A stretch of 64,000 nt of DNA from Candidatus Versatilivorator sp. (GCA_965207735.1 OZ242296.1:96001-160000), one strand, 5' to 3'. Positions 56,385 to 59,899 are shown, counted from the first letter of the stretch. A program made the numbers and translations. Notes: a model not told the origin generated them from the sequence alone.

Positions 56385-56891
56385 ATGCAAACTCCAATCG
56401 ACTCCTCTCAATTTCGCAGGATCATGTCGCGCTTCGCCACCGGGGTCACCGTGGTCACCACCCGGTCGGGCCAGGAAGTCCATGGGCTCACCTGCAACGC
56501 CTTCTGCTCCATCTCGCTGGACCCCTGCACGGTCATGGTGAGCGTGGCCAAGGACGCCCGTTCCTGGCCCCTGATCGAGCGGAGCCGGCTCTTTGCCGTC
56601 AACGTGTTGAGCGAAGACCAGTCCTTCATCTCCGATCGCTTTGCCGGACGTCACCGGGACAAGGACGACAACCGCTTCGAGGGCATCGAGTGGACCACGG
56701 CGACAACCGGAGCGCCGATCCTGGGCGGGACCCAGGGATATCTGGACTGCCGGGTGACCCAGGCTTACGACGGCGGAACCCACACGCTCTTCCTGGGGGA
56801 GGTGGTTGCCTTGAACCTGGACGATTCCCGGCCCCCTCTGGTCTTCTACGGATCGCGCTACATGGGGATCGACGGCCTCAAGGCGCTGTGA
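56385..56891 (+). CDS. Flavin reductase family protein
   Basis: FRRIMSRFATGVTVVT, SISLDP, FAVNVL and GGTHTLFLGEV motifs. Confidence 0.93.
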   Translation: MQTPIDSSQFRRIMSRFATGVTVVTTRSGQEVHGLTCNAFCSISLDPCTVMVSVAKDARSWPLIERSRLFAVNVLSEDQSFISDRFAGRHRDKDDNRFEGIEWTTATTGAPILGGTQGYLDCRVTQAYDGGTHTLFLGEVVALNLDDSRPPLVFYGSRYMGIDGLKAL

Positions 56892-56896
56892 GCTAG

Positions 56897-58007
56897 CCCG
56901 CATTTCTCAGTGCGCCATGGAAAGGCGCCTTCTTCCAACGGGTGCGAAACCCGTCCAACAACTGTCGCTCCGGTTGGTAGCAGCCAGGGCGGATCATGGA
57001 GGTAACGATATGGTCTGAAGCCCTCTGGTGTCAAAGGGCCGCTTAAGGCGGTTCAGCGAGCATGCGGGCCGGAACGCGAGTGAACGTCGAGCAGGCCTCG
57101 AAACGGGCAATGCGGGGGTCGACCCACCTGAGAAATGGGGAAGGCCGAAGACGGAGGGGGAAGCGAGCGACGCGGGCACCCCTTTGGACCCGCCGGGGTA
57201 GTGGCGCTGGCACGCATGGAAGGGGAAGAAGGCAGCAACATGGGAAGCCCTGTGGGTGGTGAGGCACGCACCGAACCGGAAGCTCGCGAGAGTCAGTCTA
57301 GGCCGACAGGGTGGCGGAGAGGCCTGTAGTACCGGAGAAGCCGGGTAATACCGGTGGAGGGAAGGGGCCTCAGGTGAGGAGCGGTGACCGAAGGGGGAAG
57401 GGTCCCGGGAGTGGCGAAAGCCTGAAACCCCGACCAAAAAAGGGCCGGAGACTCCGGAAGCATCACATGCAAAAGTGAAAGGGTCGTCGGAGGAGGACGG
57501 CGTCGTCAGGGCATCAACAGGCCTGGCGGCAACCCGGGAGCGGAAGTGGATGGAGTGGGGACGGGTGCCAATCCCATAGGAGTCGTCCACGGATGCGAGC
57601 GGGGACCTGTGTGCGAGACGCATGATCCCACTGGAGAGCCGAGATGCGGGAAAACCGCACGTCCGGTTCGGAGAGCGGGGACTGGAAACGTGATAAGGGA
57701 GCCGGACTGAGGCCCGAAGCGAAAGCGACGGAATAGCCACCGGACCCTATAGTCAACGCGCCAGTCCTCGACTCTACCCAGGTCGCTGGTGCCATGACGA
57801 AAAGTAGTTTATCTTCAGTACTTTGATTGGCTCCCTGGTAAGGGCTTGCGGGTAACAGACGGCGCTGGGCATGCCCTGGCTTGTCTTTTTCCGTTCAGCG
57901 CGCACATGCTCCCTCGCGCGTAGTGACCGCTACGCTCTTCGGTCGCGAGCACGCGCTGAAGGGAAAAATCCTGCGCCATGTTCATGCCCCCTGGTGAGAA
58001 ATGCGGG
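56897..58007. mobile_element. MITE (~245 bp without the intron), interrupted by a group II intron
   Basis: Removing the intron restores ctagcccgcatttctca|ccagg, the exact reverse complement of cctggtgagaaatgcgggctag (57990-58011). CTAG on both flanks; internal hairpin ~57886-57967. Confidence 0.85.
56910..57777 (+). ncRNA. Group II intron, ORF-less (IIB-like)
   Basis: 5' GTGCG at 56910; domain V GAGCCG.GATGCGGGAAAACCGCACGTCCGGTTC at 57636-57669; long domain VI ending CTCGACTCTAC at 57777; no RT ORF. Confidence 0.92.
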
Positions 58008-59681
58008 CTAGAAGAGCCCCACCACCCTTCCTTCTTCATCCAGATCGATCTCATTGGCCGCCGGACGTCTGGGGAGACCCGGCATGGTCAGGATGTCACC
58101 GCAGATGACCACCAGGAATTCGGCTCCGGTGGCCAGCCGCACATCCTTGACCGGCAGGACGTGCCCCGAGGGGGCGCCTCTCAGCAGAGGGTCGGTGGAG
58201 AATGAATACTGGGTCTTGGCGATGCAGACCGGATAGTGTCCGAATCCTTCCTTCTGATAGCGGCGGATCCTGGCCCGTATCCGGGAGTCGGCGACCACCT
58301 CGGAGGCGCCGTAGATCCGGGTGGCCACCTTGGTGATCTTTTCCCACAGAGAGTCCTTCTCATCGTAGACGAATTTGAAGTTGGCTCGGGTGGTGGCGAT
58401 GGTTTCCACCACCGTTTGGGCCAGGTCCAGGGAGCCTTGGCTGCCCCGGGCCCAGTGGTCGCAGGCCACCACCGGGACCGAGTGGTGTGCCATGCGGTCT
58501 TTGAGGAGTGCGATCTCTGCCGGGGTGTCGTGGCTGAATCCATTGATGGCCACCACGCAGGGAAGGCCATAGTGGTTGCGTATGTTGTTCAGGTGCCGTT
58601 CCAGGTTGGGGATCCCTCTTTCCAGGCTCTCCAGGTCTTCACGCTCCAGGGAGTTCTTGTCGGCTCCCCCGTGGTACTTGAGCGCGCGCAGGGTGGCCAC
58701 CAGCACCACCAGGTCGGGGCGGAGCCCGGCCTTGCGACATTTGATATCGAAAAATTTCTCCGCGCCCAGATCGGCTCCGAATCCGGCCTCGGTCACCAGG
58801 TAGTCGGCAAGCCCCAACCCGGTGAGGGTGGCGATCACGGAGTTGCAGCCGTGGGCGATATTGGCGAAGGGGCCTCCATGCACCAGGGCCAGGTTGTTTT
58901 CCAGCGTCTGGACCAGGTTGGGCTTGATGGCCTCCTTGAGCAGCACGGCCATGGCTCCATGGGCATCCAGGTCGCTGGCCCGGATGGGTTCCCGGGTACG
59001 GCTGTAGCCGACGGTGATGTTGCCCAACCGCTGCTTGAGTTCCTGCAGTGAACGGGAAAGGCAGAGAATGGCCATCACTTCCGAGGCCGCCACGATTTCA
59101 AAGCCGCCTTCCCTGGGATAGCTGTTGCCCAGGCCTCCCAGACCCAGGACGATTCGACGCAGTGCCCGATCGTTCAGGTCGACCACCCGATTCCAGGTCA
59201 CCCGCCGGAGATCCAGGTCCAAGCGGTTTCCCTGGTGGATGTGGTTGTCCATCATCGCGGCCAGAAGATTGTGCGCCAGGCCCAGGGCGTGAAAGTCGCC
59301 GGTGAAGTGCAGGTTGATGTCTTCCATGGGAACCACCTGGGCCATCCCGCCTCCGGCGGCGCCTCCCTTCATGCCGAAACAGGGGCCCAGGGAGGGTTCT
59401 CGCAGACAGATCAAGGCCTTCTTGCCCAGGCGGTTGAGCGCGTCTCCCAACCCCACCACGGTGGTGGTCTTGCCTTCTCCGGCCGGAGTGGGAGAAATGG
59501 CGGTCACCAGGATGAGTTTCCCTTGTCCCCGTCGTTCCGAGTTCAAGGTGGCCGGCGACAGCTTGGCCTTGTAGTGGCCGTAGGGTTCAAGGTGGTCCAC
59601 CGGAATCCGGAACTTTTCCCTGGCCAGGTCCACCACATTTATCAGTTTGGCTCGGCGGGCGATCTCGAGGTCGGTTTGCAC
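58008..59681 (-). CDS. fhs: Formate--tetrahydrofolate ligase
   Basis: [44 protein letters not shown] and TMPGLP motifs; GTG start with GGAGG RBS. Confidence 0.97.
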
Positions 59682-59899
59682 TGGCGGCGGTCCTCCACTC
59701 CGATCCGGGAAGGCTCGATATGCCTTTGGATCGGGGCTCAACGGTTTGGGACAAGCGGCCGCACCCGGGGCTCGCTTAACGGCGTCCGGAACGGAGAGTG
59801 GCCGGCGTCTCCCGGTAAACCAGGTTTCCGTTCCCGGAACAGCGCACCGTGCCATAATACGGAAATTCGCCGGTTGCTTCAATTCCAGGAGGTTGCCCT

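Follow-up and report, generated by a model that had tools for sequence, protein, structure and literature searches.

The locus described here raises the question of how an intron without a reverse transcriptase (RT) comes to split the end of a transposon that itself carries no ORF, and whether the two have spread together or separately. The window is the whole 64,000-nt stretch that was analysed, corresponding to positions 96001-160000 of the single-contig 5.26-Mb genome of Candidatus Versatilivorator sp., and window coordinates are used for all features of the locus itself.

The intron, its exons and the host element

The first-pass annotation had delimited an 868-nt group II intron beginning with GTGCG and ending with ACTCTAC, and matches to the Rfam models group-II-D1D4-4 (80.8 bits, cut-off 49) and Intron_gpII (41.2 bits, cut-off 40) confirm it at 56910-57777 on the plus strand. 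The sequence features that mark group II introns are present, namely a GUGYG start, an AY end, a catalytic triad in domain V and a bulged A in domain VI. Domain I (56927-57233), the putative targeting module, contains alpha (56964-56970) paired with alpha' (57165-57171), the latter lying within a stem-loop. Domain IV (57372-57633) is about 260 nt long and has no RT ORF, and among the tblastn matches listed no significant remnant of one was found. It is followed by domain V (57634-57671), with an AGC triad and a 5-nt GAAAA loop, and by a long domain VI (57673-57774) with the bulged branch-point A at 57771. An EBS2 within an internal loop and an EBS3-IBS3 pair place the intron in subgroup IIB, according to the feature list in PMC8643678. 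The three fold features reported for class E/F introns (PMC3753933) are present as well, that is, alpha' at the tip of a terminal stem-loop, an extra bulge in the EBS1 stem (DId3) and a 5-nt domain V loop, and those classes likewise lack an endonuclease. We therefore refer to the intron as class E/F-like, a provisional assignment made from the RNA fold alone that covers class E, class F or a later-named lineage. Minimum free energy (MFE) folding of the whole intron (z -3.35) yielded domains V-VI and local hairpins but not the helix closing EBS2; for the helices of domain I, comparative pair counting was used instead of the MFE fold, and since the domain I structure was drawn from the same sequences, the excess of pairs over slid controls is partly built in. 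Relative to the 22 identical copies of the intron in the genome, the window copy has two private differences (57119 and 57556), neither of which occurs in the contigs of run X1, and which could represent genuine rare variants or mistakes in the assembly. In the two RNA runs among the four runs covered, of 24, all consisting of contigs only, no intron-free joint of this locus was found; intron-like contigs were deep, but pooled over several organisms and copies.

As previously proposed, EBS1 (TGAGAAA, 57129-57135) occupies the loop of a hairpin, and all of its bases can pair with the final 7 nt of the exon (7/7 pairs). Among relatives, EBS1 follows the target, reading TGAGAAA, TGTAAT, TGTCTT and TGTTAA for four target classes. 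The candidate EBS2, CGGGC (57104-57108), was also put in the right place, in an 11-nt loop (57101-57111), so that both motifs fall in loops of the fold, but its pairing with exon positions -14 to -10 is weaker than that of EBS1. The loop is situated between two helices, of which the closing one covaries at five of six pairs (22 sequences, 98% of cells paired), and the EBS2 pairing itself covaries in places, with GGGC/GCCC here, GGATAA/TTATCC at loci L005 and L006, and GGAC/GTCC at L133. However, half of the introns at this target (10/20) have no more than three consecutive EBS2 pairs. The fifth pair (position -14) reads a base of the variable target-site duplication; A replaces G there in 5/27 filled perfect sites, and G is not enriched in filled sites (22/27 versus 98/116). 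EBS2 has been reported to be dispensable for splicing in two tested members of class E/F (PMC3753933). TGCGGG (57111-57116), which matches exon positions -13 to -8, was tried as another EBS2 and rejected as one strand of a covarying helix. The predicted EBS3 (G57201) pairs with C57778; in the source genome, EBS3 is G where position +1 is C and A in two sister introns where +1 is T, with exceptions among congeners. By these complementarities, the intron appears to be programmed by EBS1, and probably by EBS2, for the end of a multicopy transposon.

That end is an IS1380-type terminal repeat. Its outer 13 bp (56897-56909) form the end of the 5' exon and comprise the IBS2 core (56897-56900), a 2-nt linker and IBS1 (56903-56909), and its inner 5 bp (57778-57782) begin the remainder of a miniature inverted-repeat element (MITE, 57778-58007), all on the plus strand. 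The right repeat (57990-58007) carries an empty copy of the site on the minus strand. The element is bounded by the palindromic 4-bp duplication CTAG, of the YTAR class, on the left at 56893-56896, where the last base is target position -14, and on the right at 58008-58011, where it contains the TAG stop of a convergent formate-tetrahydrofolate ligase gene (fhs, 58008-59882, minus strand; PF01268, 839.7 bits) that ends at the MITE. Upstream lies a flavin reductase-like gene (56385-56891, plus strand; PF01613, 164.5 bits), and read-through of this gene would supply the intron precursor. When the intron is excised in a script, the perfect 22-nt inverted match with 57990-58011 is restored, as had been noted, although a 22-bp repeat is not what it represents. 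The outer 4 nt vary between copies (CTAG, TTAG, CTAA, TTAA), and 20/21 copies of the autonomous insertion sequence (IS) and 24/33 MITEs have them as direct repeats at the two ends, non-palindromic cases such as CTAA/CTAA among them; the terminal repeat is therefore 18 bp long, flanked by a 4-bp duplication, and the MITE, first estimated at about 245 bp, measures 243 bp.

The element has what is expected of an IS1380-derived MITE, i.e. ends in common with an autonomous IS1380, a short duplication, no ORF and many copies. The autonomous IS is 1698 bp long, is present in 21 two-ended copies, 18 of them identical, with a 4-bp duplication, and its transposase is of the IS1380 family (NF033539, 410.6 bits, cut-off 180). 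The MITE body folds no better than shuffled sequences (z -0.89), and an internal hairpin is found at 57886-57968. Since there is a 130-bp form of the MITE without the 57886-57968 part, the 243-bp form looks like the 130-bp one plus a 113-nt module. IS1380 elements and the MITEs derived from them being otherwise ordinary, the interest of the element lies in its end serving as an intron target.

A mosaic intron and its RT-encoding sisters

A search by tblastn found group II RT in the source genome only in 15 long sister introns, which fall into three families. RA, a single copy, is located at the same IS1380 end and has the same EBS1 as the ORF-less intron, and is thus the RT-encoding sister that the first-pass annotation had recommended looking for; RB, also a single copy, occupies the target of a second, likewise single, ORF-less intron (OB); and RC comprises 13 near-identical copies at a third target. 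The RC target (e.g. at 409328) is a multicopy A/G-rich direct-repeat element, which is also a hot spot for IS1380. Fourteen of the sister ORFs are open and one is frameshifted; they encode 456-459 aa and are 82-91% identical between families. The protein of the same-target sister matches TIGR04416 (332.9 bits) as well as Pfam RVT_1 and GIIM; a nuclease domain is absent from it, the one sister protein scanned, and by eye the class D C-terminal motif is absent from the sister proteins. Three features of trans-driven ORF-less introns of the TeI3 type are present, namely the lack of an RT ORF, many recent copies with matched EBS and IBS, and RT-encoding relatives in the same genome. From these sequence data, the ORF-less intron likely spreads by retrohoming with an RT provided in trans by one of the 15 sisters, a reading to which we give a probability of roughly 0.8. 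As to which sister, the 3' part of the ORF-less intron is only 58% identical to the sisters, so that the region to which the protein usually binds differs. In one other genome (G009), neither of the long introns found at the IS1380-end target is intact, the single unbroken ORF of the family being that of an intron whose EBS1 differs, and in a second (G011) a different EBS1 is also seen in the six intact loci read, of nine. This pattern fits a non-cognate driver, and the breaks may also postdate the spread. At L164 in G011, two RT introns are arranged head to tail, as has been reported for RmInt2 (PMC4615759).

The two ends of the ORF-less intron have different relatives. Over nt 1-360, identity is 94.2% between it and RA, 98.3% between OB and RB, and 87.6% between the two ORF-less introns; in the final 170 nt, it is 98.2% between the two ORF-less introns and 58% between either of them and the long sisters. 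In a four-way comparison, from whose counts one conflicting site of the third pattern was left out, 39/40 informative sites before nt 390-416 group the introns by target and 35/36 sites after it group them by ORF status, a switch that none of 2000 permutations reached. The best-fit switch point (57299-57325, plus strand) is located at the end of domain II and the start of domain III. Trees built from 27 sequences of the source genome and its congeners gave the same picture: that of domain I unites the ORF-less and RT introns of the IS1380-end target (100/100), and that of the 3' part separates all 12 ORF-less introns from all 15 long ones (100/100), the ORF-less 3' half occurring with three target classes. 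With domains I-II grouping with the same-target RT sister and domains IV-VI belonging to a separate ORF-less lineage, the ORF-less intron is, as judged from these comparisons, a mosaic. The chassis made up of domains IV-VI would be of separate origin, domains I-II would have been exchanged with RT sisters by homologous recombination, and an exchange near the border of domains II and III would reset the target.

A likely route of such exchange is illustrated by locus L161, where the 5' exon of an IS1634-like end is combined with the 3' exon of an IS1380 left end, and which is a natural recombinant, the product of a crossover between two intron copies; after a crossover of this kind, domain I and its 5' exon would still match. 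A remnant of the second ORF-less type, in which 84 nt of the 5' end are joined to 37 nt of the 3' end, is present at its usual target at 4260992-4261108 of the source genome. It could also be that homing proceeds in the same way but that simple deletion in the same-target RT sister gave rise to the ORF-less intron, with no exchange of domains, which we regard as very unlikely. The 94.2% identity of domain I to that sister would be expected in this case; domains V-VI, however, are 58% identical to all three sisters and 98% identical to the ORF-less intron at another target, and the two trees conflict with full support. Unless the 3' halves have converged, a deletion origin is refuted, and the same values argue against an origin of the TeI3 type, by loss of the ORF from a resident RT intron. 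No RT-encoding parent of the ORF-less 3' half was found.

Occupied sites, fork direction and independent homing

The source genome contains 28 full-length copies of the ORF-less intron at 99.4% identity or more, 22 of which are identical, and all 28 split the same IS1380-type terminal repeat at the junction of bases 13 and 14, a fixed position that is not due to chance. The MITE was correctly supposed to be multicopy, with 33 full-length copies, and homologous introns occupy the same site in their elements, not unrelated ones. Specialization on the MITE was not borne out: the 28 copies are carried by 15 MITEs, six IS1380 elements (either end being used), four shorter derivatives and three lone ends. 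Because the autonomous IS, short derivatives and lone ends are used too, the target is the IS1380 end, of which the MITE is the commonest carrier. Among the filled MITEs, 11 have the intron at the left end and four at the right end. Allowing one mismatch, the 15-nt target occurs at 213 sites, of which 29 are filled, comprising 27/143 perfect sites versus 2/70 imperfect ones. None of the 63 two-ended elements in the source genome is filled at both ends; a 242-bp element filled at both ends is represented by loci L094 and L095. At 572740-572990 of the source genome, a MITE retains no more than the first 7 nt of the intron between its left repeat and its body, the scar of an intron lost by short-homology deletion.

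Replichores were defined by dnaA at 3.54 Mb and by the GC-skew maximum at 0.73 Mb. On this basis, 24 of the 28 copies are co-oriented with the replication fork (binomial p=1.8e-4), as are 23 of the 28 if the terminus is placed at 0.91 Mb as a check, and 38 of the 44 full-length introns of all families. If local GC skew replaces the two replichores, the co-oriented copies number 22-23 of the 28 and a clear bias is lacking in the 13-copy sister family (6-8/13), local skew being a noisy measure of fork direction at 2.7-4.6 Mb. Perfect sites are filled in 24/64 cases with the fork versus 3/79 against it. The bias toward the lagging-strand template that marks endonuclease-independent retrohoming, and that has been reported for endonuclease-less introns (PMC4615759), is thus present. 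The window copy runs with the fork and the empty right repeat is therefore on the disfavored strand; it is empty, as had been stated, but not the equally available free site for which it had been taken. Nine perfect sites, for example one just upstream of 677224, are in MITEs and IS1380 elements inserted at the end of a 1.6-kb IS, presumably IS1182-like to go by its protein motifs. Fork-oriented sites at the end of this IS are filled in 7/7 cases versus 17/57 elsewhere (p=5.6e-4, post hoc), and a promoter-like stretch is found 35 nt upstream.

The copies might instead have multiplied as passengers, one or a few introns having entered a MITE or IS and the composite then having been amplified by IS1380 transposition, as the hitchhiking proposed in the first-pass annotation would have it. 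Filled MITEs are indeed somewhat closer to each other (mean of 8.0 differences) than empty ones are (12.5), in one pair of identical MITEs both members have the intron at the left end, and four copies run against the fork, three of them in two-ended elements. However, the MITEs are diverged (32 distinct sequences among 33, with a mean of 8-12 differences) and their introns nearly invariant, the nearest neighbor of the window MITE is an empty copy one change away, and each of two intron variants is found in more than one type of element or at different ends. Moreover, both ends of MITEs and IS copies, short derivatives and lone ends have been used, and transposition would not align introns with the fork. 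Hitchhiking is therefore unsupported, is refuted as the main route, and is in our view even less probable than the deletion origin. The copies have more likely arrived by independent homing, and the four copies against the fork and the identical filled pair would allow for a little co-transposition. Least probable of all is that host recombination copied the intron between terminal repeats by gene conversion, with no RT step, since even though recombination between intron copies occurs in the genus (L161 and the mosaic), the sequence in common next to the intron is just 13-17 nt at one border and 2-5 nt at the other, flanks differ between copies, and neither the fork bias nor the maintenance of EBS pairing and helices would be predicted.

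Under RT-dependent homing in trans, read-through transcripts would be spliced with the help of a sister's endonuclease-less protein, and the resulting ribonucleoprotein would reverse-splice into the lagging-strand template at the fork, where the nascent strand would serve as primer. With a site on both strands of every IS and MITE, one end would always be favorably placed. A transposase, which had been thought to be needed in trans, would merely multiply the target sites.

Related systems, wider occurrence and implications

Both halves of this idea are in print for other bacteria, homing into IS ends for RmInt2 and trans-driven ORF-less introns for TeI3, and both are thus already known, so that the locus, considered by itself, provides a clean further example. 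The two inverted repeats of ISRm17 are homing targets of RmInt2 in Sinorhizobium meliloti GR4 (PMC4615759; PMC5894124). Like the intron studied here, RmInt2 is endonuclease-less, uses both IS ends, one site being always on the lagging-strand template, and has an IBS2 at -14 to -10, a 2-nt linker and relaxed EBS2 pairing (PMC4615759). Unlike it, RmInt2 encodes its own protein, belongs to class D and has another target sequence, and the accessible text on RmInt2 describes no ORF-less form, MITE or domain exchange (PMC4615759). In Thermosynechococcus elongatus, the 17 ORF-less TeI3 introns are mobilized in trans by driver proteins and, as here, form families with different EBS, one of which always occupies the same position in ISEL1, an IS200-family element (PMC2882425). 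TeI3, however, is a CL/IIB1 intron whose driver proteins have an endonuclease domain, and its ORF-less forms are reported to stem from one deletion of a resident intron and to have been retargeted by EBS divergence (PMC2882425), whereas the 3' half of the present intron is foreign to the RT introns of its genome, retargeting looks like the exchange of whole domains, and the target is a terminal repeat. Bacterial ORF-less introns are described as rare and nearly always found beside related RT introns (PMC4424553). No paper on an ORF-less group II intron in a MITE was found, in a search that covered subscription journals thinly, so that an older description is possible; nor was this system found among listings on IS1380 inverted repeats and on chimeric or recombinant group II introns, or the exchange of a whole exon-recognition domain between ORF-less and RT lineages for bacterial introns. 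What is added here is an internally controlled fork bias, a probable exchange of domains and a niche that crosses phyla. With the site present on both strands of each element, one complete genome amounts to a natural test of fork-dependent homing that carries its own control.

The exact junction recurs in at least 107 loci of the species collection, a set that was not de-duplicated. Among the matches listed, a YTAR duplication precedes 88/110 junctions and the domain I motif is present in 59/91 junctions with enough sequence; the other 32, being remnants or unrelated, are not counted as introns. Rfam group-II-D1D4-4 matched 13/20 loci tested, and an IS1380 transposase was matched in 7/80 long loci. 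Also among the matches listed, RT-encoding members were found in Bryobacterales, Terriglobia, Nitrospirota, Verrucomicrobiota, Alphaproteobacteria and Bradyrhizobium, and further Rfam-positive ones in Planctomycetaceae and Eremiobacteraeota, and the closest ORF-less copies (95-96%) belong to Ca. Versatilivorator or Versatilivoraceae. The proteins encoded at this junction form two clades with introns of other targets between them, and no monophyly by target was seen in the protein tree. A second ORF-less intron, of 791 nt and from the other of these clades, occupies this site in six loci, all of a single Bryobacterales record. The junction occurs in three of the five congeners searched and in only 2/300 other genomes of an even sample of the phylum, and is thus patchy. 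A sister RT family with EBS1 TGTTAAT (L140, L145-L147, L159, L169 and L183, in genomes G005, G008, G009 and G011) is inserted 13 nt inside the end of another IS, which encodes a 620-aa transposase (L141) and which we take from its protein motifs to be IS1634-like; in the source genome, none of the 24 ends of this IS is filled.

A broader view can be held only tentatively, at somewhat less than even odds. The ORF-less intron would be a reprogrammable, non-autonomous chassis with foreign domains IV-VI that acquires domains I-II from any RT-encoding intron present in the same genome. It would thereby be able to switch target by a single recombination, three targets having been observed, and to use proteins that have not coevolved with its 3' half, and it would belong to an E/F-like guild that inserts between bases 13 and 14 of IS1380 ends in at least five phyla, has a sister family equally deep in IS1634-like ends and may disable the ends that it occupies. 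As a route of retargeting, domain exchange would relax the rule of coevolution between ribozyme and protein, and targetron design would gain natural modular parts from it. The use of one junction across many phyla suggests that introns have long had a niche in IS1380 ends, and makes it testable whether such introns curb the spread of the IS.
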